A stretch of DNA of 64,000 bases from [Phormidium] sp. ETS-05. Its GTDB lineage: Bacteria; Cyanobacteriota; Cyanobacteriia; Cyanobacteriales; Laspinemataceae. The position numbers and the translations under genes were made by a program. The stretch is from NCBI RefSeq assembly GCF_016446395.1, contig NZ_CP051168.1:3749579-3813578 (forward strand), written 5' to 3'. Every line of letters begins with the position of its first letter. Position 1 is the first letter of the stretch. Below, piece by piece: positions 1,581 to 59,600 of the stretch. The notes under the pieces are model-generated. The model did not search any database. It was not told the DNA's origin and saw nothing but the letters and a program-made list of their open reading frames with translations.

Positions 1581-4536
1581 TTACCGGGCGGCGGTCAATT
1601 TCCCCAGGAGGTCTGCCCAGCGGACACCTTCCAAGTTGGGGAGGACCACGTGAGCAGATCCAACCCGCTCCACTGGCCCGAGTCCTACTGCCAGCATCCC
1701 CGCTGCTAGAGCTGCTTCAATACCGGAGGCAGCATCTTCGACCACCACGCATTCCACAGGGGAAAGTCCCAATTGCTCGGCGGCGTGGAGGAACAGGTCT
1801 GGGGCGGGTTTGGAACGATCGACTGTGTTACCGTCAGCGATCGCATCCACCAAGTGGGCAATATTGAGGCGATCGATGACCATGCGGGCATTTTTACTCG
1901 CCGAGCCGATCGCCACCTTAATTCCCGCTGCGTGCAGCTCCGCTAACAATGAACCCGCCCCAGCGAGTAAATGTTCCGGTCCGATTTGCTCGAGCAAATC
2001 CACATAATAGCGGTTTTTCCGCGCCATAATTTCCACCATCCTGGCTTCTGGGAGGACTTTTCCCCCCAACATCTGCAGCAAAGAATCCCGACGAGACAGA
2101 CCCCGCATGGCTTCATTCGCCTTGCGGTCAAAAGCAATACCCTCCTCATCCGCCACCCGCTGCCAACCTTGGTAGTGGAATTCCGCCGTATCCGTCAGCA
2201 CCCCATCCAAATCAAAAATGACTCCCCGAATCCCTGGCGTCATCGGTGTGGCGGGTATCGCCTCCGTTGGGGCAGAAAAATCAAACTCGTAGCTCTGACC
2301 ACGCCATTTTACCTTATACTTTAGCCGCGTCCAGCCCGGGGGTAAGTGGGCTTTAGCCGTAGGGTGGCTCTCCCCATCGGGCAACTTTAACCCGCCAAAA
2401 CCAAACACCGTTGCCTGCCAAACACCACCAGCAGAAGCCGCATGAATGCCATCCGCCGCATTCTGGTGCACATCTTCTAAGTCAACCATCGCCGCTCGCA
2501 TAAAATGTTCGTAGGCAGCGGCGGGTTGCTCCAAGTCGCAAGCCAAAATCCCATGTATGGCTGGACCGAGACTAGAGCCATAGGTGTGGTCTGTGCGCGG
2601 CGCATAATAATCCCAGTTTTTGGCTAAGATTTTTTCGTCCCAGTTGAGCCTTTGTCCCCCTCCTGGGGAACCGATACTCCGCAGGAGGTACAGGAGCATC
2701 AACACGTCTGGCTGTTTGAGGACTTGGCGTTTATTGGTGCCTTCGATGCCCAAAATTGCCTGCATGGAGCGGCTGCGGGGCTCGTAGTCGGCTAAATTGA
2801 TATCTTCAAGTGCGAAGAAACCCTCGCACTGCTCCACTAAACCAGTTTGCGGGTCGTATAGTACACACAGGCGGCGAGCGATATCTGCCCACCGGTGGCG
2901 TCGGTCTTCTTTCAGGTCTAGCTTGGCCTCCAGCTCGGAGAGCCTTTCTGGGTGGAAGGTTTCCAGCCATTGCCACACCGCTAAGGCTGTTTCCAAGTGC
3001 CACTGCACCATCCGGTTGGTAAAGGTGTTGTTATCTACCCGATCGTGGTATTCATCTGGTCCGATGACGCTTCTAATCTCATACCGTTCGCGTTTACCGT
3101 TCCACTCCACGCGGGTGCCCCAGAAAATGGCGGTATCGAGGATGATTTCGGCGCCATAGTTGCGCATCCATTGGTCATCGCCGGTGGCTCGCCAGTATTG
3201 CCACACGCCATAGGCGACATCGGTGGTGATATGTAGTTCGCGATCGCCACACCAAATTCTAATCGGGTCCGCATCTGGATCCGCTGCCAAAATCCACCGA
3301 GGCGTCACCTCATCCCCAGTCGTGGCACTTTCCCAGGCAATAGCTGCCCCCGGATAGCCGCTAGCTTGCGCCTTGCGCCGACTTCCGGGCAGAGTATGAT
3401 AACGGTAACTCAACAAATTCCGCGCTATCTGTGGTTGGGTGAGGGTAAACAGAGGCAGGATAAATATTTCCGTATCCCAGAAAATGTGACCCTTGTAGGC
3501 AAAACCCGAGAGACTTTTCGCCGGAATGCTCACCCGATCGTCCTGAGTGGGAGCGCTGATCAGCAGTTGAAACAAGTTGTAGCGCACCGCCAGTTGGGCT
3601 CGGATATCCCCTTCGATCGTAATATCGCAGTCTTCCCAAACAGCAGCCCAAGCCTCCTCGTGCGCCGCCCGCAAAACCTGGTAGTCTGGCAGTTGCGCCA
3701 AGTGCTGCTTTGCCGCCATAGCCGGTTTCTGGGTTTCCCGACTGGTAAAAACCGCCACCACCTTTTCCAAAGTCACAGTTTGTCCCGAACGAGCCGAAAA
3801 AGTAGTTGCCAAAGTGGGATAGCCTTCGCACCCCTTCAGCTCCATTTCTGGCGACTCGGCCCCCCGCACCTGCATCCCAATCGCCATCCCCAGTTCAATG
3901 TGGGTTTCCCGAGTGCGCTGGTGCAGCCAAACTCCCTGGGGTTGACCATTCTCACCGCCAATATCTCCCTGGTTCACCCATTCCCAGTGCATCACACCCT
4001 GGTTTTCGGAATAACCGTTGATGCTGGACTGCACCTCAATAACTCCTTGGAAATTGAGCGGTGTCAACTCCACCATGAGAGCGGCGACATGTTCATCTGC
4101 TTTGCTGACAAACCGCTGGAAGTGCAAATCAATCATATGGCCAGCGGGACTGCGCCACCGCACCTGACGCGAGCAAACCCCGGCGCAGGTCAAGTCGCCG
4201 ATCGTAGTTGAGAACCTCCCCGAAGTCCAAGCGGAACTTTTCCCCATTCACTAATAAGGTAGTCGCTAGCCAGTCCGGGCAGTTAACCAGCTCTGTATAA
4301 ACCACCGGTACGTCATCATAGACGCCATTGATAAAAGTCGCCGCCCAAGCTCCGGGATAGCCTTCTTCAAAGCTCCCCCGAGTACAGAGGTAGCCATTGC
4401 CAATAGTAAACACCGTTTCTTTGTGGTGTTGGGTGCGATCGGTTGGCGCCCCTCCGGGGTGGCGGGTCTGAAACTCAGTCTCAGTCAGGAGCCAATCCTG
4501 ATAGATAAAAGGTTGAGGAGGAACTTTTGCATCCAT
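1581..4536 (-). pseudogene. GH65 glycoside phosphorylase (kojibiose/maltose/trehalose phosphorylase family) fused to beta-phosphoglucomutase (HAD); interrupted by a 1-nt frameshift near 4190-4215
   Basis: ORF 4129..4536 encodes the GH65 N-terminus (TIGNGYLCTRGSFEEGYPG...YDRRLDLRRGLL). ORF 1581..4247 continues the GH65 N-domain in another frame (RWRSPAGHMIDLHFQRFVS), then the catalytic domain, then C-terminal beta-PGM motifs (GVIFDLDGVLTDTAEFH...). The frame switches within ccggggtttgctcgcg. Confidence 0.7.
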
Positions 4537-13882: not shown

Positions 13883-13971
13883 CACACAGTCCTTTGTCCT
13901 TTGTCATTTGTCCTTTGTCACTTGGAAATTGGACATTGGACAAATGACATTAATCTGTAAATACAAACGTA

Positions 13972-14003
13972 GGGGTACGGCATTGCCGTGCCCTTTCTTT
14001 TTG
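13972..14003 (+). terminator. intrinsic terminator downstream of chlH
   Basis: ggggtacggc-attg-ccgtgccc hairpin followed by tttctttttg. Confidence 0.55.
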
Positions 14004-16440: not shown

Positions 16441-16630
16441 GATATTTGTCCTTTGTCCTTTGTCCTTTGTCCTTGGTCTGCCAGAAACCTTCTGCGAGTT
16501 TGGGTTTTTTCCCGATATTTGGTTAAGAAACCCGGTTTCTCAGACAAAGGACAAGTGACCAAGGACAAATGACAAATGACAAGTGACAAAAGAATCCCTA
16601 CCCAAGGACAAATGACAAATGACAAGTGAT
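16441..16630. repeat. STRR arrays flanking a GAAACCCGGTTTC hairpin element
   Basis: tttgtcctttgtcctttgtccttggtc ... ccagaaacc...ttaagaaacccggtttctcag ... gacaaatgacaagtgacaaaag... Confidence 0.7.
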
Positions 16631-20732: not shown

Positions 20733-21125
20733 ATTTGCTCCTCGTTTTTTGTCATTAGTTACTTGTCACTTGTCACTTGTCACTTGTCATTAGTCCCTTG
20801 TCCTTTGTCCTTTGTCCTTTGTCCTTTGACAATTGTCCCCTAGTCCCCCCGTCCAGAAGTCCCCCCGTCCCCCCGTCCAGAAGTCCCCCGTCTCCCCGTC
20901 TCCCCGTCCCCCCCGTCTCCCCGTCCCCCCCGTCCCCCGAAGACAGCCCTCACCCCGTCCCCACACCCGGCGGAGGGAGAGGGGGGAAAGTCCCCCCGTC
21001 TCCCCGTCTCCCCGTCTCCCCGTCTCCCCCCCTTTCAAAGGGGGGTAGGGGGGATTGTCACTTGTCACTTGTCACTTGTCACTTGTTACCAAAGTACAAA
21101 GGACAAAGGACAAAGGACAAAGGAC
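20733..21125. repeat. STRR arrays bracketing GC-rich repeat elements
   Basis: ttgtcacttgtcacttgtcacttgtcattagtcccttgtcctttgtcc...cccgtctccccgtctcccc...cctttcaaaggggggtagggggg...ttgtcacttgtcacttgtcac. ORFs 20777..21520 and 20790..21068 are read-throughs of repeats. Confidence 0.7.
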
Positions 21126-21128
21126 AAT

Positions 21129-24092: not shown

Positions 24093-24300
24093 TCATTGGT
24101 CATTTGTCATTTGTCCTTTGTCATTTGTCCTTTGTCCTTTGTCCTTTGTCATTTGTCCTTTGTCCTTTGTCATCATTAGACAAGGGACAAGTGACAAGTG
24201 ACAAGTGACAAGCGGACTTGCGGACAAGTGACAAGGGACAAGTGAAAAATGACAACGGACAAGTGACAAGGGACAAGTGACAAGGGACAAGTGAAAAATG
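24093..24300. repeat. long STRR heptamer array in both orientations
   Basis: cattggtcatttgtcatttgtcctttgtcatttgtcctttgtcc...gacaagggacaagtgacaagtgacaag... Confidence 0.8.
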
Positions 24301-24308
24301 ACCAATAT

Positions 24309-27469: not shown

Positions 27470-27740
27470 ATATTGTCATTTGTCCTTGGTCATTTGTCAT
27501 TTGTCCTTGGTCATTTGTCATTTGTCCTTTGTCCTTTGGTTAGTTCTGTAGGGTGGGCTGTAGTGGCGAATGGTTATTCGCCCGGGCGAATGGCCATTCG
27601 CCCCTACAGAACACTGGTGATCAAAAGAATTACCCGTCAGGCACTGCCCACCCTACTATTGCTCGCTTTTAATTATTATCCTTGGTCATTTGTCATTTGT
27701 CATTTGTCATTTGTCCTTTGTCCTTTGTCCTTTGGTTAGT
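27470..27740. repeat. STRR arrays flanking a long palindromic repeat (GTAGGGTGGGC... family)
   Basis: ttgtcatttgtccttggtcatttgtc... tagttctgtagggtgggctgtagtggcgaatggttattcgcccgggcgaatggccattcgcccctacagaacactggtgatc...gtcaggcactgcccaccctac ... ttggtcatttgtcatttgtcatttgtcc. Confidence 0.75.
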
Positions 27741-31734: not shown

Positions 31735-31925
31735 GCCAGAGCTTGCCAAGGACAAAGGACATTGGACTTAGGACAATCCCCCCTACCCCCCAATGAATCG
31801 GGAGGGGACGGGGTGACGGGGAGACGGGGAGACAATTAACAATTGTCAATTGACAAATGACAAATGACAAATGACAAATGACAAATGACAAATGACAAAT
31901 GACAAATGACAAATGACAAATGATA
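31735..31925. repeat. STRR array (GACAAAT)n plus flanking repeats
   Basis: caattgtcaattgacaaatgacaaatgacaaatgacaaatgacaaatgacaaatgacaaatgacaaatgat. Confidence 0.8.
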
Positions 31926-34433: not shown

Positions 34434-34597
34434 AGAGATAATTTGAAGGGAAATTTTTTAGCTGTAGCACTTGATAGGTTTGAAATGTAGCGGTCACAAA
34501 AGGCTAGGTTTTTTGTTAATCTGGATTTATATCTAGGAAAATGATGGGTAGGTTTTATTTTTAATATTTAATTGGTGAAGGGATATGGGAATAATTA

Positions 34598-34840
34598 CTC
34601 TAATTATTAGAGTAACATTTATCCAGTAGTAGGGTGGGCATTGCCTAACGGAGAATTATTTTTATATCCAGTAGCAGGGCGCTGCTCAACCTACAGAACT
34701 ACAGCACTCTAATTATTAGAGTAACCTTTATCCAGTAGTAGGGTGGGCAGTGCCTAACGGAGAATTATTTTTATATCCAGTAGCAGGGCACTGCCCACCC
34801 TACAGAACTCTAATTATTAGAGTAACATTTATCCAGTAAT
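34598..34840. repeat. ~100-bp tandem repeat (about 2.5 copies) containing the GTAGGGTGGGCAGTGCC palindrome
   Basis: ctctaattattagagtaacatttatccagtagtagggtgggcattgcctaacggagaattatttttatatccagtagcagggc(g/a)ctgc...ctacagaact, repeated. Confidence 0.75.
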
Positions 34841-37985: not shown

Positions 37986-38288
37986 TATGATAAAGAAAAG
38001 TGAAGAATCATCAAGAATTATCAAGCTGACTACCAAGATAAAAACCCGATCGGGGATACTGGTGTCAACGGGTAAGAGAGCCGACTCGACTCGCAGCCAC
38101 AGGAATCATTAACATCAGTTTTTTTCAGGGCAGTAGGGAAATGGCAATGCCGTGTCCCTACTGCTAACACGCTCTCCATTTTCCCACTCCGCACGGGCGC
38201 AGCTTCATTTTAGAGGCATCCCACCGGAAAGTAGCCAAACCGTGGGGAAGATTTATCATAGATAAAATATCGTAGGGGATTGCCAGCT

Positions 38289-40283: not shown

Positions 40284-40285
40284 TT

Positions 40286-40365
40286 TGTCATTTGTCATTT
40301 GTCATTGGTCATTTGTCATTTGACAACAGGTAGTAGGGTGGGCAGGGTACTGCCCACCCTACATT
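40286..40365. repeat. STRR plus GTAGGGTGGGCAG palindrome
   Basis: ttgtcatttgtcatttgtcattggtcatttgtcatttgac...gtagtagggtgggcagggtactgcccaccctac. Confidence 0.75.
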
Positions 40366-40427
40366 TTTGACACTGTTAAATCTTTACGGTATTGACAAAA
40401 TTATCGCTTTGACCGAGGATAACTGCC

Positions 40428-41666
40428 ATGAATAGTGACAAAAATCATGTCAGCAGAGGCAATATTTTAATTGTGGATGACGAGCCCAACAATTTGCGGG
40501 TATTATTGAATTGTTTAATCGCCAATGGCTATGATGCTCGCGGCGTCTTGAATGGGGAAATGGGGTTAAAAGCTGCCTTATCCGAGCCGCCTGATTTAGT
40601 CTTGCTAGATATTATGATGCCGCACATGGATGGATATCAGGTTTGCCATGAATTTAAAAAAAATGATAATTTAAAAGATATTCCCATCATTTTTATTAGT
40701 GCTAAATACGATAGCCTTGACAAGGTGAAAGCATTTCGGGGGGGTGGGATAGATTACATTCCTAAGCCGTTTCAGATTGAAGAGGTTTTGGCACGCATAG
40801 AAAACCATTTGCGTTTAAGGCAATTGCAGCAGGAACTAGCACAGCAAAATTTATGGCTGCAAGCGGAAATCAGCCAGCGTCAAGCAGCCGAGCAAGCTCT
40901 GCAAGCACAAAATGCCCAGCTACAACGAGAAATCAGAGAGCGGGAGCGGGCGGAAGCGGAGCTGGCTAAGCTGAACGAGGATTTGGCTCGTTCTAATAGC
41001 GAACTGGCACAATTTGTCAGCATTGCCTCTCACGATTTGCGCTCTCCTTTAACGACGATTAAAGGTTATGGTCAATTGTTCAAAATGCGTCACGCCCAGT
41101 CCTTAGAAGCGGAAGGGCTGCGGTATATCGATCGGATTCTCGATGGGTGCGATCGGATGCTGAACCTGATTGACGATTTATTGCAATATTCCCGATTAGG
41201 AAAAGGTGGAGAGCAGTTTAGTCCGGTTAGCACCGCCGAAGCTGTAGAAGAAGCCTGCCAAAATCTCAGTTTAGAAATCAACACCAATCATGCCGAGATT
41301 ATCTGCCGCGACTTACCCGTACTCACGGCGGACTTTTCCCAATTGCGCCAGCTATTTCAAAATTTAATCGGTAATGCCATCAAATACCGAGGCGAAGCCA
41401 ATCCCAGAGTAGAAGTTACCGCCATAGCCGAAACCGAGCAATACTTATTCGCCATTAAAGATAATGGCATTGGCATTGAGCCGGAATCGTTTCCCAAAAT
41501 CTTTCAGATGTTTAAGCGCCTGCACGGTCCGAGCGAATATCCCGGCACTGGTATCGGTTTAGCGATTTGTCAAAAAATTGTTCAACTTCACGGCGGGCGC
41601 CTCTGGGTAGAATCAGCACCTGCTCAAGGTTCGAGTTTCTATTTTACCATCCCGATACTCGGCTGA
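40428..41666 (+). CDS. hybrid response-regulator receiver / histidine kinase (REC-coiled coil-HisKA-HATPase)
   Basis: ILIVDDEPNNLRVL...DLVLLDIMMP (receiver), Q/E-rich coiled coil, HisKA (SIASHDLRSPLTTIKGY), HATPase (GNAIKY...DNGIGI...GTGIGLAICQKIVQLHGG). SD GAGGA. Confidence 0.85.
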   Translation: MNSDKNHVSRGNILIVDDEPNNLRVLLNCLIANGYDARGVLNGEMGLKAALSEPPDLVLLDIMMPHMDGYQVCHEFKKNDNLKDIPIIFISAKYDSLDKVKAFRGGGIDYIPKPFQIEEVLARIENHLRLRQLQQELAQQNLWLQAEISQRQAAEQALQAQNAQLQREIRERERAEAELAKLNEDLARSNSELAQFVSIASHDLRSPLTTIKGYGQLFKMRHAQSLEAEGLRYIDRILDGCDRMLNLIDDLLQYSRLGKGGEQFSPVSTAEAVEEACQNLSLEINTNHAEIICRDLPVLTADFSQLRQLFQNLIGNAIKYRGEANPRVEVTAIAETEQYLFAIKDNGIGIEPESFPKIFQMFKRLHGPSEYPGTGIGLAICQKIVQLHGGRLWVESAPAQGSSFYFTIPILG

Positions 41667-42700
41667 CCCAGCCACTTCCTACCCAGAATCCGATCATTCG
41701 TAGGGGCACGGCATCATCAACCCCCGAGCTGTCACAGAAAATCCCCATAACGCCGTGCCCCTGATTTACACATATGAAAAAAGCCTGCCCCAAAATCCCA
41801 TGATTCGTAGGGGCACGGCATCATCAACCCCCGAGCTGTCACAGAAAATCCCCATAACGCCGTGCCCCTGATTTACACATATGAAAAAAGCCTGCCCCAA
41901 AATCCCATGATTCGTAGGGGCACGGCATCATCAACCCCCAAGCTGTCACGGAAAATCCCGATAACGCCGTGCCCATTATTTACACATATGAGAATACCCT
42001 TGCCCCAAAATCCCATGATTCGTAGGGGCTGTTCTTCATCAACCTCCAAGCTGTCACGGAAAATCCCCATAACGCCGTGCCCCTGATTTACACATATGAA
42101 AAACTCTATACCCCCAAATCCCATCATTCGTAGGGGCACGGCATCATCAACCTCCAAGCTGTCACGGAAAATCTCGATAACGCCGTGCCCCTGATTTACA
42201 CATATGAGCAAATTATAACCCAAAATCCCATGATTCGTAGGGGCTGTTCTTCATCAACCTCCGAACTGTCACGGAAAATCCCCATAACGCCGTGACCCTG
42301 ATTTACACATATGAGCAAATTATAACCCAAAATCCCATGATTCGTAGGGGCTGTTCTTCATCAACCTCCGAACTGTCACGGAAAATCCCCATAACGCCGT
42401 GACCCCCTGATTTACACAGATGAAAGATTCCACACCCCAAAATCCCATCATTCGTAGGGGCTGTTCTTCATCAACCTCCGAACTGTCACGGAAAATCCCC
42501 ATAACGCCGTGCCCCTGATTTACACATATGAGCAAATTATAACCCAAAATCCCATGATTCGTAGGGGCTGTTCTTCATCAACCTCCGAACTGTCACGGAA
42601 AATCTCGATAACGCCGTGCCCTTGATTTATACATATGAGCAGATTATGCCCCAAAATCCCATCATTCGTAGGGGCACGGCATCATCAACCTCTGATATCA
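41655..42700. repeat. tandem array of ~10 copies of a 107-108-bp unit, each with a 10-bp inverted repeat (GGGGCACGGC...GCCGTGCCCC) and a ~15-bp variable segment
   Basis: Unit: cacatatga[variable ~15 nt]ccaaaatcccatgattcgtaggggcacggcatcatcaacc(c/t)cc(g/a)agctgtcacggaaaatccccataacgccgtgcccctgattta. The period measured between equivalent positions (41761 vs 41868) is 107. The first copy overlaps the last codons of the 40428..41666 gene. Confidence 0.85.
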
Positions 42701-43135
42701 AGTCCTACTGCATCGGGATGTGAATAACTGGGGGGGCACGGCATTATGAATATTTCTCGTTCACCCAATATCTTGATGACGCCGTGCCCCTACCAAGATT
42801 AATTTTTATGGGGCAAAAATTAGTTCTGTAGGGTGGGCAGGCACTGCCCACCCTACTACTGGCTGCATCGGGATGTGAATAACTGGGGGGCACGGCATTA
42901 TGAATATTTCTCGTTCACCCAATATCTTGATGACGCCGTGCTACTACCAAGATTAATTTTTATGGGGCAAAAATTAGTTCTGTAGGGTGGGCAGGCACTG
43001 CCCACCCTACTACTGGCTGCATCGGGATGTGAATAACTGGGGGGCACGGCATTATGAATATTTCTCGTTTATTCAATATCTTGATGACGCCATGCCCCTA
43101 CAAATATTAATTTTTATGGGGCAAAAACAGCTACC
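42700..43135. repeat. second tandem array, ~155-bp unit x3, combining a GGGCACGGC/GCCGTGCCC hairpin with the GTAGGGTGGGCAGGCACTGCCCACCCTAC palindrome
   Basis: ctgcatcgggatgtgaataactggggggcacggcattatgaatatttctcgttcacccaatatcttgatgacgccgtgcccctaccaagattaatttttatggggcaaaaattagttctgtagggtgggcaggcactgcccaccctactactgg, repeated at 42708, 42863 and 43017. Confidence 0.85.
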
Positions 43136-43154
43136 GAGTCTAGGACCGCACCCC

Positions 43155-43192
43155 AATAAAAAAAGGTGGGATTGCCTCCCGGCAAACCCACC
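43155..43192 (-). terminator. intrinsic terminator downstream of the RTX gene
   Basis: Minus-strand transcript GGUGGGUUUGCC-GGGA-GGCAAUCCCACC followed by UUUUUUUUAUU. Confidence 0.7.
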
Positions 43193-43244
43193 TCCTGTGA
43201 TGGGGTTGGGTGTGGCCGTAGCTTCACCCAACCGCAGACTGAGT

Positions 43245-45278
43245 TTAGAAAATCACGATGTCGTTGACGTTGACCTGACCTTGCTGGATAACAGCGATGA
43301 CGGAATCTGTACCGTCAGGATTGAGACCGCCATTGTAATCCCAGTACAGGGTGCCGCCACCTGTGGCCGCCGAATCAAAGACGATCGCCGGTATGGTGGT
43401 GCCGCCGGAGAAAGTGCCGGTGTAGTTCTGACCGGAAGCCACCGCGAAGAAGTCCAGACCACTCCGCAGTTGCTGCCCTTGGGTGGCGAGAGCGAAACCT
43501 GTGTCATCGATGTAGATTTTGTCGATACCGGTATCAAAGTCAGTGATGGTATCGTCGCCTTGGTCGGAACCGTTGTAGTAGAAGCCATCGAAGGAGCCGT
43601 CAATCCCGATGAGGAGGTCAGCACCTTTGAAGCCGTAGAGAGTATCATTGCCAGAACGACCGCTCTCGCCACCGAGGGTGTCGGCTTCCGAGCTACCTAC
43701 GAACAGGTCGTTACCCCCACCGCCGATGAGGGTGTCACTGCTATGGCCTGCCACGAGGATATCGTTGCCCGTGCCACCATCCAAGTAGTTGGGACCGCCA
43801 GCAGAAAGAGCAAACAGGGAGTCGTTGCCTTCACCACCTAACAAGGTGTTGCTGCTGGCAACACCGAGGCTAGTGTTGCCGAAGGGGGTGAGGGTGAGGG
43901 TGTCGTTGCCTGCACCGCCATTGAGGGTGCTGCCCGTTCCCCGGGCGGTGAGGGTGTCGTTGCCTTCGCCACCCAACAAGGAAGCGTTATTGTTTACACC
44001 CACATCTAGGCTGTCATCGCCAGCACCGCCCACGAGGGTGGCAGTGCCGCTGCCAATTAGAGTATCACTGCCTTTGCCGCCATCCATCCAGCTACGGCCA
44101 GCAGCGGTTATGGATAAGTAGTCGTTGTCTGTGGCCGCGTCTTCGTCTCCGTCTTTGGTGCCACCAAAGAGGGTATCACCACTGCTGCCGATGAGGCTGT
44201 CGTTGCCCTTGTCACCGTAGAGCCAGTTGGTGCCGCCGCCCACTTCGGTGAAGATAGTGTCGTTACCTTGACCACCGTAGAGGGTGTTGCGTCCGATGCC
44301 GGTGTTGTTAGCCTCATCCAGCGTCAAGCTGTCGTCACCAGTGCCACCGAGCAGATAGCTATCCACACCGATGTAGGTCATGGTGTCTTTGCCGTCGCCG
44401 CCGATGAGGGTGTGGCGTCCCCGATCGCCCCCTTCCGAGTGCAGGCTGTCGTCACCGATGCCACCATCTAGGAAGTTGGCGCGGGGAACACCAGCTAAGG
44501 TAAACGTGTTGGCGTTGGTGGCACCCTGAAGAGAAGTGTTTTGGTTGCCGGGACTGCTCAGAGCGCTGAGCATCATCAGGGTGTCGTTATCTTCGCCACC
44601 CAACAGGGTATCCCTGTCGCCGATGCCAATCACCAAGTCATTGCCCTTATCCCCGGACAAATAGTTATCCCCAGGGTTGGTCGGCGGACCAAAAACACCT
44701 TGCGTGGTGACCACACCTACCGAGCCGGTGCCCGACAAGCCTTGGGTGGTGGAGACTCCCAAGCTAGAGATGGGGGTATTGAAAGGCACGAAGCCACCCG
44801 TACCGCTACTACCACTTCCGGAAAGCTCCACCACCTGGAGGGTGTCATTATCCATCCCGCCGAAGAGGGTATCATCTCCTAAGCCAGAACCGCTGATGAA
44901 GTCGGTGCCGGTGTTACCGAAGGCCAGGTTCCCCCCGCCGCCGTTACCAAAGTTGAAAATATCGTCGTCGCCTAGACCATAGACGATATCGCCGCCCAGG
45001 GTGCCTCTGGACTCAAAGTAGTCATCTCCAAAATCGCCGAAAAACAGGCTGTTGCCCGCCAAGCTGCGCAGGACATCATTATCCTGGCCGCCAAATACCG
45101 TGTCATTGGTGCCAGAAGAAGTGAGGGAGTCATTGTCTCTGTTCCCTGAAATCAGACTGCCGCCCACTGTATCGCTGGTGATGAAGTCAGTGCCATCCAG
45201 GCCAAAAATCGAATCTGGGCCTGCATTGGTAGCACTCATATCCAGCGTGTCGTCGCCAGTAGTTAGGATTCTAACCAT
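43245..45278 (-). CDS. RTX-type calcium-binding repeat protein (hemolysin-type GGxGxDxL repeats), probably secreted
   Basis: Dozens of GGxGNDxL nonapeptides (GGQGNDTIF, GGEGNDTLT, GGAGNDTLT...), 677 aa, acidic, no Cys. GAGGAG RBS. Confidence 0.8.
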   Translation of the reverse strand: MVRILTTGDDTLDMSATNAGPDSIFGLDGTDFITSDTVGGSLISGNRDNDSLTSSGTNDTVFGGQDNDVLRSLAGNSLFFGDFGDDYFESRGTLGGDIVYGLGDDDIFNFGNGGGGNLAFGNTGTDFISGSGLGDDTLFGGMDNDTLQVVELSGSGSSGTGGFVPFNTPISSLGVSTTQGLSGTGSVGVVTTQGVFGPPTNPGDNYLSGDKGNDLVIGIGDRDTLLGGEDNDTLMMLSALSSPGNQNTSLQGATNANTFTLAGVPRANFLDGGIGDDSLHSEGGDRGRHTLIGGDGKDTMTYIGVDSYLLGGTGDDSLTLDEANNTGIGRNTLYGGQGNDTIFTEVGGGTNWLYGDKGNDSLIGSSGDTLFGGTKDGDEDAATDNDYLSITAAGRSWMDGGKGSDTLIGSGTATLVGGAGDDSLDVGVNNNASLLGGEGNDTLTARGTGSTLNGGAGNDTLTLTPFGNTSLGVASSNTLLGGEGNDSLFALSAGGPNYLDGGTGNDILVAGHSSDTLIGGGGNDLFVGSSEADTLGGESGRSGNDTLYGFKGADLLIGIDGSFDGFYYNGSDQGDDTITDFDTGIDKIYIDDTGFALATQGQQLRSGLDFFAVASGQNYTGTFSGGTTIPAIVFDSAATGGGTLYWDYNGGLNPDGTDSVIAVIQQGQVNVNDIVIF

Positions 45279-48431: not shown

Positions 48432-48516
48432 AACTAGAAACCGGGTTTCTGCGGAGAATCGCCGTCTAGGTACGAGGTCCCCCAGAGAAACCCGGTTTCT
48501 TTCCCCGCCGTGCCCC
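48430..48516. repeat. 87-bp repeat element R1 (two GAAACCCGGTTTC hairpins); direct repeat of 49423-49509
   Basis: aaaactagaaaccgggtttctgcggagaatcgccgtctaggtacgaggtcccccagagaaacccggtttctttccccgccgtgcccc, ~98% identical to the second copy. Confidence 0.85.
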
Positions 48517-48528
48517 ACCGCTCCAAGG

Positions 48529-48561
48529 GTAGGTTGGGTTGAGGAACGAAACCCAACCTAC
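48529..48561. repeat. hairpin repeat GTTGGGTTGAGGAACGAAACCCAACCTAC (intergenic copy)
   Basis: 9-bp stem ggttgggtt/aacccaacc; the same element occurs twice in frame inside the 49509..54035 CDS (about 51867-51953). Confidence 0.8.
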
Positions 48562-49422: not shown

Positions 49423-49509
49423 AAAACTAGAAACCGGGTTTCCGCGGAGAATCGCCGTCTAGGTACGAGGTCCCCCAGAGAAACCCGGTTTCTTTCCCCG
49501 CCGTGCCCC
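49423..49509. repeat. 87-bp repeat element R2, direct repeat of R1; abuts the stop of the giant glycosyltransferase gene
   Basis: aaaactagaaaccgggtttccgcggagaatcgccgtctaggtacgaggtcccccagagaaacccggtttctttccccgccgtgcccc. Confidence 0.85.
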
Positions 49510-52500
49510 TACTGGCGATAAAGTTCCACGGCTCGGTTGTAATTCGGCGTACTAGGGTCGTTGGCTCCGGCTTCTAGGCGATCGAGTAGAGGTTGGAGAA
49601 AACTGTTTTCCTCCTCGGTGAGGGGTTGAGCTAAAAACCCGCTCTTTATCAAGGCTTGATGAGCTTTGCCCACATCGCCATTGTAGAAATCTGGGATTTG
49701 CTCTGGGGACACGACAAGCCAAAAATCAGCTAGTTCTCGGCGTAGTTGGCGCAGTTCGGCGATGATGGGCTGGTCCGTGGGGTCGATGTAATGGAGATTG
49801 GCACAACCGATGAGTTGGTTAATAAATTCTTTCACCCCTCCTTTCAAAGAAGGGACACTTTGGAGTCCCATCTCCCCGTCAAGGGGTTGGGCGAAGCATC
49901 CGCGTACAGACTTCTCCGTTTCACCGAGAGTTTTGGGCGCGGATGCTTCGCCCCTACCGAGTTGCCATTGATGGAAAATTTGCTGGAACAAGTTGCCGAT
50001 TTTGGCGCCATAGGTGCGACTGTCGAGAAATGCTGGGTTGGCTTGCATTTTTGCCAGAATTTGCTGCCGGTATTGCTGGCGCAGTTGGGGGTTATTGCCC
50101 AGGGCAATGGCTAATTTGATATAACTCTCGTCACCAGTGGCGATGAAATCGGTGATTTGCAGTTCTCGCATGAGGGCGGATGCTTGGCGGAACCGCAGGG
50201 CATTCCCTTCCACAACCACTGGAGGGAGTCCCACTTCTAGGGGGTCTAATAGGGATGTGGCGCCGCCATAGGGGTAAGAATCGAGATAAACATCAGCTAG
50301 TTGTAAAACTTGCTTAATTTCCAGGCGGGAAGGCAGGGTATTTAGCACCTTGAGGCGGTTGGGGGCGATGCCATATGTGGCAAATACAGCCTGCATTTGC
50401 TCAATAAAAGTCATTTTCGGATAAGCCTGCATCCATGCGGGGCCGAATGGATATAACACTAAGACGGAATTGGGGACAGCGGCGATAATTTTTGCCCAGG
50501 TTTGCAACAATTCGGGGGTGATTTTATAGAAGTTGGCACCGGAAACGAATACTAAGGCTTCTGGGGCAACGCCGATGCTGTTTCTGTCGGAGAAAGCCAC
50601 CGCCCTTGGAGTCTGGAGGGTAGGCAAACCGTAGTTGGGATAATGGAAGCAAAGACCACTACCAGGAATATTGACTAATAGCTCTCGATATTGGTCTTGA
50701 CATGATGGTGGTGCGGTTAAGTCCCCAGCAATGTAGCAATCAATGTGGGGCATTCCTGTGGTGGTGGGTGAAGATAGGGATGTGACTTGTAAGCGTGCGA
50801 GGCGGTGCATGGGTAGCCAGTCAAAACTGGAGTTACCGGCTGTGAGGTTGGTGCCAATGAAGAGGATATCTAGGTCGTCATTGCGCATTGCTTGCACCTG
50901 GCGGTTTAAATCTGAGGGCAGTTTGATAAATTTATCTGCCAGACGCTGGCAATATTGCTCTAGGGGGTTGCCATTGGCGTGGAGGGTGTAGAGGATAATC
51001 TCAAACTGGTCGCGGTTGAGGTGTTCGATTACGGGAATGGTGACAAAGGTTTCGGTTTTGGGGTTGAAGTGGATGTTAAGGACTCCCAACCGAATTTTGT
51101 TTCGTTGTGGGGAGCGTGGGGGAATTTGCCAATTTAGCTGGCAGCCCCGGGTTTTCAGGGCAAATTCGGCGATGTCAGAGCGCTTTATATAGGTGTCTTT
51201 GAGGTTTCCTGAGCTGAAATATAGGGGGAGGAAAAAGGCGCGCTGGGCAAATAACCATGATATTTCTTGCCAGATGGGGGCGTCGGGGTTCGCTAAAATT
51301 CGCTGGTGGAGATATTCGATTAATCCATGCAGGTAGCTGTAGTATTTTGCGGTTTCGCCGATTTCCTGGAAATATTGGGGTGTGTCTAGAAGAAAGTGGA
51401 GAAAGTCTTTGATGAACCATTTGGGGATGGGGGCGCTTTGGTATTGTAATGGGAGTTTGTAGGCGCGGCGGTAGAGCATTGCTGCGAGAATGGATTGCAG
51501 GGCTAGAGGATGGTTAAAGCCGCTGGCAATTTTGGCTGATATTTCTTGGAATAGGGGCTGCTCCGCTTCGCTGATGGGGATATCTGTGATGCTGTGGTTG
51601 ATTTTCAGGCCGCTGTCAAGTAAGGCGCGTTGTGTTTTGCCTAGGTCTCCTTTGTAGGCGGTTTCTAGGTGTTCTGATGGTGTGGCTAACCAGGCATTGG
51701 CGATTTGCTGCCGTAGTTGGCGGATGTGGGCTAATGTATTGGGGTCGGATGGGTTTTGTTCGTATTTTTGCAGGATATCCGTTAGTCCCTTCGTCTCCCC
51801 ATCCCGGCGTAGGATGGGTTGCTTGGGCTCATCGGGATAAGTCGAAGTGCCCGTCGGGTTGAGTGTTGGGTTTCGTTCCTCAACCCAACCTACGGGAGGG
51901 AGATTGGTAGAGTTGAGTGTTGGGTTTCGTTCCTCAACCCAACCTACGGGAGGAAGATTGGTAGCTTGGATGAGTGCATGGCGGACGGTGGCGGCCATTT
52001 TTGCCCAGGAGAATTTTTGGGCTTGAACGAAACCGGCGGCGATGAGGGGTTGGCGGACTTGAGGGTTTTGGATGTTGATGAGTGCTGTGGTTAGGGCGGG
52101 GATGTCATCATCTTTGATGTAAAGTGCGGCGGTTCCGGCGGCTTCGGGAATGGCGCCGTTGGGTGTGGTGATGACGGGACAACCGCAAGCCATTGCTTCG
52201 ATGATGGGTAAGCCGAAGCCTTCATATTTGGAGGGATAGACGAGGGCAATGGCGCCGGAGTAGGCGGCGGCGAGTTCACTGTCATTGAGGGTGAGGAGGT
52301 GAACTTTGGCATCGGGGGCGCTGGCTTTTAATTGAGGTTCTAGTTGGGGGCGACCGCCAACGCAGATGATTTCTATTTCATGGCTCTGGGGGAGTTGGGC
52401 GAAGGCTTGGAAGAAGAGGATGGTGTTTTTATAGCCGTTGAATCCGGCGCGATCGCCCACGATGACAAAATAAGGTTTGGTGATGTGGTACTTGGCTTTA

Positions 52501-59354: not shown

Positions 59355-59378
59355 GGTAATTGCTTTGTCCCTTGTCAT

Positions 59379-59600
59379 TTGTCATTTGTCACTTGTCACT
59401 TGTCACTTGTCCCTTGTCACTTGTCACTTGTCCCTTGTCACTTGTCACTTGTCACTTGTCACTTGACAAATGACCAAGGACAAAGGACAAAGGACAAAGG
59501 AATCCCTACCCAAGGACAAAAGAATCCCTACCCAAGGACAAAAGAATCCCTACCCAAGGACAAATGACAAATGACAAATGACGATTAGCCATATAGAGGG
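59379..59600. repeat. long STRR array (TTGTCAC/TTGTCCC then GGACAAAG) with a 3x repeated aggacaaaagaatccctaccca unit
   Basis: ttgtcacttgtcacttgtcccttgtcacttgtc...gacaaaggacaaaggacaaaggaatccctacccaaggacaaaagaatccctacccaaggacaaaagaatccctaccc. Confidence 0.85.

Follow-up and report, generated by a model that had tools for sequence, protein, structure and literature searches.

The repeat locus downstream of the hybrid kinase gene very probably consists of 'long' GTAG-tagged REPs of a cyanobacterial type, clustered in tandem between two convergent genes in an Oscillatoriaceae genome. It is a large example of a kind of repeat that is already known and does not constitute a new kind of system. The window, i.e., the whole 64-kb stretch of DNA that was analysed, contained a repeat locus of ~1.45 kb, in which two adjoining tandem arrays lay between the hybrid kinase gene (plus strand) and an RTX gene (minus strand). 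The tandem-repeat locus proposed in the initial annotation was recovered via Tandem Repeats Finder as 9.4 copies of 107 bp and 2.7 copies of 154 bp. Array 1 (41682–42692) had a period of 107 bp and 89% matches, and unit listing and unit alignment gave unit lengths of 107–110 bp. Array 2 (42708–43127) had a period of 154 bp and 95% matches. A second repeat-finding program concurred with Tandem Repeats Finder on both. The units of array 1 were composed, in order, of a 5' flank f1 (CCCAAAATCCCATSATTC), the GTAG tag, a 58-nt hairpin, a 3' flank f2 (TGATTTACACATATGA) and a variable linker of ~12 nt.

The kinase gene (40428–41666, plus strand), which encodes Response_reg, HisKA and HATPase_c domains, converges on the array. 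The first unit had been described as overlapping the last kinase codons; the stop codon occupies 41664–41666, and the repeat homology begins only at ~41682, 16 nt later. The orthologous kinases of L033 and L040 end at the same place. The RTX gene (43245–45278, minus strand) encodes RTX calcium-binding repeats and is convergent with the kinase gene. Its intrinsic terminator was found by direct reading at 43158–43192 on the minus strand (GGTGGGTTTGCC-GGGA-GGCAATCCCACC, then T7) and was unreported by the automatic terminator scan. This terminator is retained in L035–L037 and in L039; it lies outside the array and precedes it in the direction of RTX transcription. Because the RTX gene has its own conserved terminator ahead of the array, the array and the RTX gene are not linked by transcription.

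The individual units of array 1 differed in the state of their arms. The unit 1 hairpin was intact on the minus strand according to the arm search, unit listing and folding (41700–41761 as a whole, with the GTAG tag, read on the plus strand, at 41700–41703 and the hairpin at 41703–41761). The unit 2 hairpin (41810–41868) was identical to it, and unit 3 (41917–41975, minus strand) carried a single mismatch in the right arm (GCCGTGCCCA). Folding identified the unit 5 hairpin (42133–42191, minus strand) as the best preserved. Unit 4 (42022–42083) was the first broken-arm unit, in which the left arm GGGGCTGTTCTTC replaced GGGGCACGGCATC. The same variant occurred in units 6–9 (starts at 42237, 42344, 42454 and 42561), with an additional right-arm mismatch in units 6, 7 and 9, and it was also present in L039; neither unit 4 nor units 6–9 had a significant fold. 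Unit 10 (42665–42707) formed the junction, with a left arm only (42671–42680) followed by array 2. Hence, the perfect 10-bp inverted repeat that the initial annotation ascribed to every unit was confined to units 1, 2 and 5. In the unit alignment, units 1 and 2 were identical and units 6 and 8 were 99% identical, linker counted.

Complementarity of 92% was seen between the arm of unit 10 and the right arm in the first unit of array 2, and the junction between unit 10 and array 2 recurred in L039. In array 2, the unit hairpins belonged to the array 1 family and were inverted, and they were accompanied by an AT-rich flank and by the palindrome GTAGGGTGGGCAG..CTGCCCACCCTAC. Array 2 hairpins were located on the plus strand at 42733–42790 in the first unit, at 42887–42944 with two mismatches in the second and at 43041–43098 with one mismatch in the third. 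The alignment of the 107-bp units (minus strand) with the 154-bp units (plus strand) gave a mean column identity of 81%; the two sets of hairpins are homologous, in mutually inverted orientation. The second array had been said to join a similar hairpin to the palindrome GTAGGGTGGGCAGGCACTGCCCACCCTAC, and this was seen in the 154-bp units, in which this second GTAG-tagged palindrome lies at 42828–42856 with a further copy at 42982–43010. It was scattered over the window, with 12 arms found and 0.04 expected. The final partial unit of array 2 is probably the ancestral copy because it lacks the palindrome and matches the single 154-type copy of L039. The arm GGGGCACGGC, with one mismatch at most, was found 25 times in the 64-kb window versus 5.8 expected, and 19 of these 25 matches were inside the array.

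The core of each unit was a hairpin of 57–59 nt, GTAG-GGGGCACGGC...GCCGTGCCCC(TAC), whose 10-bp foot (GGGGCACGGC/GCCGTGCCCC) was nearly invariant across 57 aligned instances. The basal stem of 10 bp was followed by an extension of ~8 bp with mismatches and G.U pairs, and by an inner segment of 20–23 nt that was paired only sometimes. The arms (GGGGCACGGCRTYATYRA) were not palindromic in themselves; the element is a single long palindrome. GTAG stood immediately before GGGGC in 10/10 units of array 1, and CTAC stood after the right arm both in array 2 and in 39/39 instances from other genomes. In the hairpin alignment, 86% of the cells were paired, whereas 37–47% were paired in slid controls. 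Covariation in the same alignment was not above the shuffle control, and the stem is supported by the pairing fraction and by a few always-compensated changes, which may go back to one inherited event. The stem of the 107-type units reached ~25 bp on the minus strand via G.U/G.T pairs. The whole of unit 5 was predicted to fold as minus-strand RNA at −49 kcal/mol (z = −5.7), and its hairpin as single-stranded DNA at −16.3 kcal/mol on the minus strand versus −14.0 on the plus strand. The predicted values for the hairpin alone with G.U pairs were −40 (minus) and −27 kcal/mol (plus). The intact units folded at z = −3 to −5.7, whereas the broken-arm units (5/10) had no stem and folded like shuffled sequence, with z values of −0.7 and +0.07. 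A short form, GTAGGGGCACGGC-ATG-CCGTGCCCCTAC, was found in metagenomic RAYT loci, and a degenerate version of it lies at 13967–13994 of the window.

Such folds would be expected if every 107-bp unit were transcribed separately as a small-RNA gene. NsiR1 of Anabaena/Nostoc is a tandem array of this type, whose repeats each comprise a promoter, a structured RNA of ~60 nt and a terminator. The present locus resembles NsiR1 in its tandem units of ~100 bp with a hairpin in each and in its filamentous cyanobacterial host. The intact units beat their shuffles with a clear strand asymmetry, and a variable linker between conserved blocks is what would be expected between gene copies. On the other hand, the scans for sigma-70-type promoters and intrinsic terminators returned no site on either strand over 2.1 kb, whereas shuffles gave 3.3 and 2.6. 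TATAAT-like strings were seen by direct reading in the linkers of some units only. No Rfam family reached the gathering score, and relaxing the threshold to E up to 10 added nothing beyond chance-level matches; the sole CRISPR-DR match (E = 3.7) was at this level and lay outside the array. Furthermore, half of the units are hairpin-less, and copies of the hairpin turn up in many different contexts and orientations and beside transposase genes. An array of NsiR1-like genes is thus highly improbable, and the structured-RNA array suggested in the initial annotation was not borne out.

The relatives of the hairpin indicate what kind of element it is. The exact arm TTGATGAYGCCGTGCCCCTAC was found in 32 stretches from ~10 cyanobacterial genomes (at least 10 with the hairpin), including Microseira, Oscillatoriaceae M33_DOE_052, Xenococcaceae, Nostocaceae, Calothrix, Argonema and Hormoscilla, and it was invariably within a hairpin of the same 57–59-nt length. 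The related MAG M33_DOE_052 had 12 loci with the exact 21-nt arm, which suggests a high copy number of the hairpin in the source genome as well. Outside the array, the window held no complete long hairpin but short or partial relatives at 13967–13994, 38132–38160, 48507 and 49500. The RAYT is a REP-associated tyrosine transposase, that is, an HUH/Y1 single-strand DNA transposase. The hairpin flanked 6/6 of the close RAYT orthologs examined in other genomes (62–100% identity) at a distance of ~200 bp or less, so that the REPtron trait, a RAYT gene flanked by its own palindrome, is seen there. The ORF of L009, with the motifs NHLH..WQ..YIIDNP, matched NCBIfam REP_Tyr_transpos best (E = 4e-16) and Pfam Y1_Tnp weakly, both under the cutoffs (59 bits versus the curated 80 and 22.2 versus 23, respectively); its homologs carry the source name 'REP element-mobilizing transposase RayT'. 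An array of the hairpin (82 bp × 3.7) adjoined this gene at one end, and a lone copy lay at its other end. Five more RAYT orthologs with 62–72% identity (L041, L044, L045/46, L047/48 and L049) had the hairpin on both sides within ~200 bp. A copy was also present within the RAYT gene of Calothrix NIES-2098, and REP copies were inserted in the RAYT gene in L016 and L047. Among the more distant RAYT loci, 56/80 had GGGGC-N5...N5'-GCCCC palindromes with 24 different inner stems, the arms of which always matched. The 64-kb window itself contained no RAYT gene.

Tandem hairpin arrays were also found elsewhere, namely, in L001 (85 bp × 2.8), L045 (82 × 2.6), L009 and L049 (90 × 3.6 and 105/124 × 1.9). 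Tandem arrays with periods of 82–124 bp are typical of the element, and internal copies with one arm destroyed were also present in L001 and L049. The flanks had a different distribution. Both f1 and f2 were restricted to this locus and the orthologous arrays of L039 and L040; they were absent from the other ~445 kb compared, including more than 12 hairpin loci of M33_DOE_052, and a metagenome scan for the f1–hairpin junction found nothing. Hence, the array is a tandem amplification of one element together with local DNA and not the product of repeated insertion of a 107-bp MITE. A MITE, which is dispersed as a whole unit with terminal inverted repeats and target-site duplications, was also rejected on the ground that no target-site duplication was visible; the sample of the source genome was 64 kb. 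The MITE expansion considered initially came nearest among the options in that the core is a non-autonomous hairpin, a RAYT-associated GTAG-REP, but the whole 107-bp unit is not a dispersed mobile element.

The array occupied the same place in three lineages whose kinases were only 83–86% identical. L039 contained ~5 diverged units and one 154-type unit without the second palindrome, and L040 contained at least 2 units before a contig break. M33_DOE_052 shared the synteny, yet its spacer was only ~170 bp and held a degenerate remnant. The copy number and content of the array vary between relatives. These assemblies also bear on the question of whether the repeat was collapsed or expanded in assembly. 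Short-read assemblies break here (L040 inside unit 2, L034 and L038 just past the kinase gene), and the copy number given for the window is that of its assembly. However, the independent assemblies L039 and L040 show the array at the same junction, and its many diagnostic substitutions and block variants in non-periodic order are unlike an artefactual expansion. The probability of an assembly artefact is accordingly close to negligible.

The linker was the most variable part of the unit. The initial annotation had pointed to a hypervariable segment following CACATATGA, and the alignment upheld it: columns 81–92 had a mean pairwise difference of 0.47 (overall mean, 0.12), which was not attained in any of 5000 column permutations (p < 1/5000). 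Pairwise differences between units were 5–8% for f1, the hairpin and f2 and 37–47% for the linker; f1, the hairpin and f2 were conserved between units 4–6 times better than the linker. The linkers are diverged versions of one sequence, all of which end in CC and pairs of which agree at 8–11 of 12–13 positions. An identical linker, GCAAATTATAACC, stood at the junctions after units 5, 6 and 8, in agreement with the shared segment previously noticed in these copies. A CRISPR array, with repeats of 24–48 bp and unique spacers of similar size, was rejected, as it had been in the initial annotation: here ~95 nt are conserved, and the ~12-nt 'spacers' recur, three of them identical, as diverged copies of each other.

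Sharply variable linkers between conserved units might also be read as target-site or donor-flank footprints left by serial insertion of a mobile element of 95–107 bp, either a MITE or an IS200/IS605-like miniature. IS200/IS605-type elements insert by a short specific target, which may lie inside the element itself (PMC6006769), and the hairpin of the Xenococcaceae MAG formed part of a larger repeated element, which had terminal inverted repeats of its own (ATACCAAGTTGC...GCAACTTGGTAT). By contrast, unrelated target sites would not give linkers diverged from one sequence, the near-identity of units 1/2 and 6/8, linker included, is a signature of unit duplication, and f1 and f2 are confined to the orthologous arrays. 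Serial insertion is therefore extremely doubtful. The f2 motif TTTAYACATATGAA was retained even by the diverged units of L039. This persistence, together with the contrast between linker and unit, makes pure neutral amplification inadequate and indicates that some constraint or biased homogenisation is acting. A maintained, RAYT-serviced cluster would be one such arrangement. Selection or RAYT-dependent homogenisation would preserve the 95 nt of f1–hairpin–f2, the linker would be the site of cleavage and rejoining, the array would grow by transposase-driven unit addition instead of slippage, and strand-specific hairpins would insulate convergent transcription in an organism without Rho. This arrangement seems very unlikely.

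The tandem GTAG-REP cluster was compared with known systems. In the BIMEs of E. coli, up to about a dozen REPs are arrayed in an intergenic region and joined by conserved linkers; REPs of opposite orientation (Y and Z types) alternate, and binding of gyrase, IHF and Pol I is documented. Their REPs are reportedly recognised by a RAYT, TnpA-REP (Ton-Hoang, 2012, cited in PMC12642595). The likeness is that of a multi-REP intergenic array; here the REPs run head to tail within each array, and the two arrays are mutually inverted. A REPIN, i.e., an inverted REP doublet with a palindromic core in each REP, was rejected given that the arms are not palindromic. The element was REPIN-like in behaviour, being a hairpin unit that forms tandem clusters and adjoins RAYT genes. 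Tandem REP/REPIN clusters share the head-to-tail series, in which the element sits between two flanks and a short non-repeated stretch sets each unit apart from the next. For Pseudomonas fluorescens SBW25, the legend of Fig. S7 (PMC3116915) describes tandem clusters of f1–REPIN–f2 units separated by short non-repeated DNA. The account of these clusters (Bertels and Rainey, 2011; PMC3116915) matches the present locus in the 5' flank f1, the hairpin, the shorter 3' flank f2 and the extragenic position. It also matches in the tie to RAYT, whose gene is often adjoining, as seen here in L009, L045/46 and L049. The present element is a single long palindrome and not a doublet of two REPs, half of the units are one-armed, and the host is a filamentous cyanobacterium. 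Moreover, 13 hairpin units in 1.45 kb compare with four REPINs and one REP in ~700 bp for the largest ordered SBW25 cluster in that account (PMC3116915).

The GTAG superfamily was compared by the features of the hairpin itself. Shared traits were a basal stem that is GC-rich and 7 bp or longer (here 10 bp) and GTAG within 0–2 nt of its foot. Further traits in common with the superfamily as described (Di Nocera et al., 2013; PMC3733652) are G.T pairs in the stem, a preference for positions between convergent or unidirectional ORFs and tandem clusters reiterated with flanking DNA. The cyanobacterial families GTAG-12, -15 and -16 were the nearest candidates by description (PMC3733652). The element is longer than the REP criterion (57–59 nt versus 20–40 bp with a loop of 2–5 nt). 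It comes nearest to the 'long' form, which has a basal stem, a 1–3-nt bulge and a second stem, but its partly paired 'loop' of ~38 nt exceeds the stated size, and GTAG often occurs at both ends. Long REPs with GT[AG]G at the 5' end are found with the cyanobacterial RAYT subclasses 2.4, 2.7 and 2.8, whose genes also contain REP insertions (Quentin et al., 2018; PMC6006769), a trait shared here by L016 and L047. In the data of Di Nocera et al. (PMC3733652), the head-to-tail arrangement was under-represented among REP dimers, which counts against reading the locus as a REP cluster.

A sequence of events can be proposed for the origin of the cluster. If the RAYT acts like E. coli TnpA-REP and members of the IS200/IS605 family, its target would be the hairpin and GTAG in single-stranded form, and it would spread the hairpin as a non-autonomous selfish element, presumably without host function. 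One or two hairpins may have landed between the convergent kinase and RTX genes. A hairpin with ~45 bp of local flank would then have been amplified head to tail into the 107-bp array, by replication slippage or unequal recombination between repeats. The recombination hotspot listed among the first possibilities would fit as this mode of growth, a step that we infer. In a second, later event, the inverted neighbour hairpin and a newly gained GTAGGGTGGGCAG palindrome may have been duplicated to give the 154-bp array. The one-armed units would be dead copies carried along by the amplification and may even have been favoured, being less cruciform-prone.

A cluster of selfish origin could also have come to serve the host, as a transcription stop or insulator, a stabiliser of RNA 3' ends or a protein-binding site of the BIME type (gyrase/IHF). 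This exaptation would add to the tandem REP cluster and does not exclude it. No terminator belonging to the kinase gene itself could be recognised, and the first GC-rich hairpin lies 37 nt past the kinase stop codon. The good preservation of f1 and f2 relative to the linker, the survival of f2 in L039 and the persistence of the array in three lineages point in the same direction. However, the syntenic M33_DOE_052 copes with its array-less spacer, and a single hairpin would suffice for termination or stabilisation, so that thirteen are unneeded. In addition, half of the units are unable to form the hairpin, terminator-like sites were missing from both strands in the scan, and the RTX gene is served by its own terminator. 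A host function of the cluster is thus unlikely.

The tandem REP cluster is of use mainly for annotation, in that a conspicuous 1.45-kb repeat is explained. Clusters of this type differ among close relatives and interrupt short-read assemblies, so that the locus could be a strain-typing marker. It also illustrates cleanly two open questions on ordered REP clusters, namely, why the short inter-unit linker escapes homogenisation and why independent arrays repeatedly contain copies in which an arm has been destroyed. Furthermore, a hairpin that is widespread in cyanobacteria (GTAGGGGCACGGC...GCCGTGCCCCTAC, 57–59 nt) is now tied to a specific RAYT clade.

The locus is a large tandem cluster of a hairpin of the RAYT-type GTAG-REP class (a RAYT is a tyrosine transposase associated with REPs; REP stands for repetitive extragenic palindrome; GTAG is the tetranucleotide tag at the hairpin foot), together with its local flanks. 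Two adjoining arrays were delimited by Tandem Repeats Finder at 41682-42692 (period 107, 9.4 copies, 89% matches) and 42708-43127 (period 154, 2.7 copies, 95% matches), the copy numbers being those assembled in the window, and both were also recovered by a second, separate repeat search. The arm GGGGCACGGC was found 25 times in the window with at most one mismatch, compared with 5.8 expected, and 19 of these 25 occurrences were inside the array. Two genes converge on a spacer of 1,578 bp, and the arrays took up the greater part of it. On the plus strand (40428-41666) lies a hybrid kinase gene, whose product has the domains Response_reg, HisKA and HATPase_c; on the minus strand (43245-45278) lies a gene whose product contains RTX calcium-binding repeats. 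An intrinsic terminator of the RTX gene itself (43158-43192, minus strand) is kept in relatives and precedes the array along the direction of RTX transcription. The arrays described in the initial annotation were real, and two details had been misdescribed. The first unit was said to overlap the last codons of the kinase gene; the homology begins only near 41682, 16 nt past the stop codon at 41664-41666, and the same stop codon is used by the orthologous kinases. Moreover, a perfect 10-bp inverted repeat was ascribed to every unit, which held for units 1, 2 and 5 only, with one mismatch in unit 3. The array was rejected as a protein-coding region: a period of 107 cannot be divided by 3, the units varied in length (107, 108 and 110), and the ORFs (74, 116 and 75 aa) crossed the units in different frames.

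Each 107-bp unit was composed of a 5' flank (f1, CCCAAAATCCCATSATTC), GTAG plus a hairpin of 58-59 nt, a 3' flank (f2, TGATTTACACATATGA) and a linker of approximately 12 nt. The left arm was replaced as a block in units 4 and 6-9, where GGGGCTGTTCTTC occurred instead of GGGGCACGGCATC, and unit 10 consisted of the left arm alone. The hypervariable segment noticed earlier was borne out: the mean pairwise difference in columns 81-92 was 0.47, whereas that of the whole unit was 0.12, and none of 5000 column permutations reached 0.47. According to the unit alignment, the linkers, which diverged 4-6 times as much as the remaining unit, were diverged forms of a single sequence rather than unrelated spacers. 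A CRISPR locus was ruled out by the architecture.

The folding of the units was evaluated with RNA and DNA parameters. In the intact units, G.U pairs lengthened the stem to about 25 bp on the minus strand. Unit 5 folded as RNA with -49 kcal/mol (z = -5.7), and the hairpin alone reached -40 on the minus strand versus -27 on the plus strand; the strand difference was small with DNA parameters (-16.3 versus -14.0). Across all instances of the hairpin, the strand asymmetry was strong in the GGCG..ATGCC subtype, to which the 107-bp units belong, and mixed or reversed in the GGCA..ACGCC subtype. Hence, no general functional strand can be claimed. The broken-arm units folded no better than shuffled sequences. 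An array of small-RNA genes, in which each unit would be transcribed, was not supported: no promoters, terminators or Rfam matches were found, and half of the units were unstructured. Rfam gave no match at the gathering score in the whole window, and for the array only chance-level miRNA, snoRNA and CRISPR-DR matches at E values up to 10. A consensus scan of both strands from 41300 to 43400 found no promoter- or terminator-like site; this negative is weak evidence because the same scan overlooked the evident RTX terminator, perhaps owing to mismatches within its stem.

The 154-bp hairpin on the plus strand was homologous to the 107-bp hairpin on the minus strand, with a mean column identity of 81%. 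Therefore, the same element is present in both arrays in opposite orientations. The 154-bp unit also held a second GTAG-tagged palindrome, GTAGGGTGGGCAGGCACTGCCCACCCTAC, whose type was dispersed through the window (12 arms versus 0.04 expected).

The distribution of the REP hairpin was explored with the shared arm TTGATGAYGCCGTGCCCCTAC, using exact matches and one genome per species. The arm occurred in 32 stretches, which came from about 10 genomes belonging to several orders of cyanobacteria, and all of these arms belonged to hairpins of one architecture with a strikingly constant length of 57-59 nt. In the alignment of 57 distinct instances, the 10-bp foot was almost invariant; its sole frequent change, at pair 4-56 from G-C to A-U, was found in 8 sequences and was compensated every time. 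The pairing of the 18-bp stem was 86% in these instances, compared with 37-47% in slid controls, and its covariation was not above the shuffle control, a few compensated positions at most lending support. The near-invariant foot and the pairing without excess covariation show that the element is conserved in sequence and folds into a hairpin as well, as would be expected for an element recognised by a protein rather than for a purely structural RNA. In a Xenococcaceae MAG (L006, L009, L013, L016, L022, L025, L032), the hairpin was located within a larger repeat of ~150 bp that has terminal inverted repeats of its own, ATACCAAGTTGC...GCAACTTGGTAT, and in Microseira and the MAG PMM_0008 it had another conserved context, ATTATTATGCTAATGTTCA...AGCATATTTAACC. 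Different composite repeats thus use the same hairpin as a module.

A crude HUH pattern applied to the ORFs of the comparison loci returned no transposase. The motifs published for cyanobacterial RAYT subclasses (Quentin et al., 2018, PMC6006769) revealed two RAYTs at the same loci. The first, at the Xenococcaceae locus L009, carried NHLH..WQ..YIIDNP, and its best NCBIfam match was the REP-associated tyrosine transposase (E = 4e-16, 59 bits, with a family cutoff of 80); the Pfam Y1_Tnp match was weak, and its database homologs carried, in their sources, the name 'REP element-mobilizing transposase RayT'. This gene was bordered by an 82-bp x 3.7 array of the hairpin on one side and a single copy on the other. 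Furthermore, five more orthologs (62-72% identity), from three JGI metagenomes, Cyanobacteria bacterium UBA11369 and Calothrix sp. NIES-2098, had the same hairpin on both sides, all within about 200 bp. Tandem arrays of 82, 90 and 105/124 bp were located beside the RAYT in UBA11369 and at locus L049, and the Calothrix RAYT gene (L047, 3001-3621) contained an in-frame long hairpin of the GGGGCACGGC type at 3274-3331. The second RAYT, from the same Xenococcaceae MAG (L016, 42% identical), served as a specificity control: another palindrome, GTAGGGGCAATTCATGAATTGCCCCTAC, lay on its flanks and interrupted it. The interruption of this gene (133-879) by its own flanking palindrome was in frame; in-gene REP copies are known for RAYT subclass 2.4 (Quentin et al., 2018, PMC6006769). 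Around more distant RAYTs, palindromes of the form GGGGC-N5-loop-N5'-GCCCC were present at 56 of 80 metagenomic loci, with 24 different inner stems and matching arms in every case. The flanking of the RAYT orthologs by the hairpin, together with the other palindrome at L016, indicates that one RAYT clade has this hairpin as its cognate REP. Within the GTAG-REP superfamily (Di Nocera et al., 2013, PMC3733652), the hairpin counts as a 'long' member. Searches with the sequence strings gave no relevant literature match, the supplements of PMC3733652 (families GTAG-12, -15 and -16) included.

The origin of the array was evaluated by comparison with relatives of the source organism, which is an Oscillatoriaceae cyanobacterium. 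The flanks f1 and f2 were confined to orthologous arrays and absent from the other ~445 kb compared, including 12 hairpin-bearing stretches of the related Oscillatoriaceae MAG M33_DOE_052, and the f1-hairpin junction ATCCCATSATTCGTAGGGGC had no match in the metagenome scan. The 107-bp unit thus consists of a single REP with local DNA attached and is not itself a dispersed element. These locus-specific flanks contradict the serial insertion of a 107-bp MITE, as do the linkers, which are homologous to one another. The kinase was 95% identical to that of MAG GCA_054682715, in which other genes follow the kinase, and 87% identical to that of M33_DOE_052, in which the gene order was kept, with a kinase-RTX spacer of only about 170 bp that contained the same RTX terminator and, in degenerate form, a remnant (GGTAGGGGCAGGGGATGATGAGGAG). 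One relative (L039, kinase 86% identical) had a 763-bp spacer with about five diverged units, a broken-arm variant among them, and one 154-type unit without the second palindrome; the f2 motif TTTAYACATATGAA was retained even in its diverged units. In another (L040, kinase 83% identical), the junction was the same, and two units or more preceded the contig break, which fell inside the repeat. An assembly artefact is unlikely, with the same junction in independent assemblies and the unit variants in a non-periodic order.

In the unit alignment, units 1 and 2 were identical and units 6 and 8 were 99% identical, linkers counted, which is the signature of whole-unit duplication. In the most economical history, a REP would have landed in the kinase-RTX spacer, and slippage or unequal recombination would then have amplified it with its flanks. 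An adjoining inverted REP would have gained the GTAGGGTGGGCAG palindrome, copies of which now lie near the boundaries of the 154-bp units, and would have been duplicated later. Independent arrays of the same REP were seen at L049 (2207-2527) and in Microseira (L001, 2763-3003), where the internal copies were one-armed and only an end copy was intact, much as with the five broken-arm units of the window. Given these broken-arm copies in Microseira and beside the L049 RAYT, the loss of one arm seems to be a recurrent property.

Several other repeats were observed in the window and its relatives. A second tandem cluster at 34597-34838 (109 bp x 2.3, 90% matches) had the arms GTAGGGTGGGCAG...CTGCCCACCCTAC with a ~40-nt insert between them; therefore, REP-type tandem clusters are not unique to the 41682-43127 locus. 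In relatives (L033 6073-10011, L035 6070-10017), one or two PAS/HisKA histidine-kinase genes, over about 3.9 kb, separated the WD40 Ser/Thr kinase from the hybrid kinase. The same interval in the window (40284-40427) had only 144 bp, made up of heptamer repeats (TTTGTCA) and a palindrome, GTAGGGTGGGCAG..CTGCCCACCCTAC; it resembles a deletion or a replacement with repeats at its borders. The repeat GGTACGAGGTCCCCCAGAGAAACCCGGTTTCTTTCCCC was joined to a half REP arm GCCGTGCCCC twice in the window (48470-48516 and 49460-49509). Its small hairpin AGAAACCSGGTTTCT was also located in the M33_DOE_052 kinase-RTX spacer (L035 11290-11310) and, in two other relatives (L038 6360-6385, L039 1820-1845), inside a 14-25-aa C-terminal extension of the kinase orthologs, so the repeat lies within coding sequence there. 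At 27548-27656, the GTAGGGTGGGC palindrome arms were about 85 nt apart around an insert with a tandem GGCGAATGGCCATTCGCCC palindrome (TRF period 20 x 2.0), which looks like a nested insertion into a REP loop. A 54-bp x 2.0 repeat at 51858-51964 (98% matches) contained GTTGGGTTTCGTTCCTCAACCCAACCTAC, and with the related palindrome GTAGGTTGGGTTGAGGAACGAAACCCAACCTA at about 48530 (48530-48560) it may represent a third family of CTAC/GTAG-ended palindromes. Dozens of intergenic heptamer tandem repeats (TTTGTCC, TTGTCAC, GACAAAT, GATAATT) and the C/G-rich octamer repeats GTCCCCCC and GACGGGGA, also intergenic, occurred window-wide, for example at 740-809, 16445-16629, 20749-21127, 24093-24302, 31831-31923 and 59365-59582; similar heptamers lay beside REP hairpins in M33_DOE_052. 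The small dispersed repeats (SDR) of Nostoc punctiforme, reportedly described by Elhai in 2008, were considered as an identity for the palindromes.

Tandem REPIN clusters have been noted beside RAYT genes (Bertels and Rainey, 2011, PMC3116915), and most REPs were found to lie between ORFs that are convergent or unidirectional (Di Nocera et al., 2013, PMC3733652). The locus fits these published cluster descriptions (PMC3116915, PMC3733652) point by point, the 'hypervariable' linker included. It differs from them in size, with 13 hairpin units over 1.45 kb, and, unlike in published clusters, the REPs run head to tail within each array and one arm is lost in half of the units. Moreover, the element is a single long palindrome, whereas the published REPIN is a REP doublet; in the strict sense, therefore, it is no REPIN. 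The array may secondarily serve the host, for example by stabilising the 3' end of, or insulating, the terminator-less kinase gene; such a function is not required because one syntenic relative is without the array. This type of cluster is already known, and the locus adds one large example. Its use is chiefly in annotation and possibly as a strain marker, and its general interest is low.
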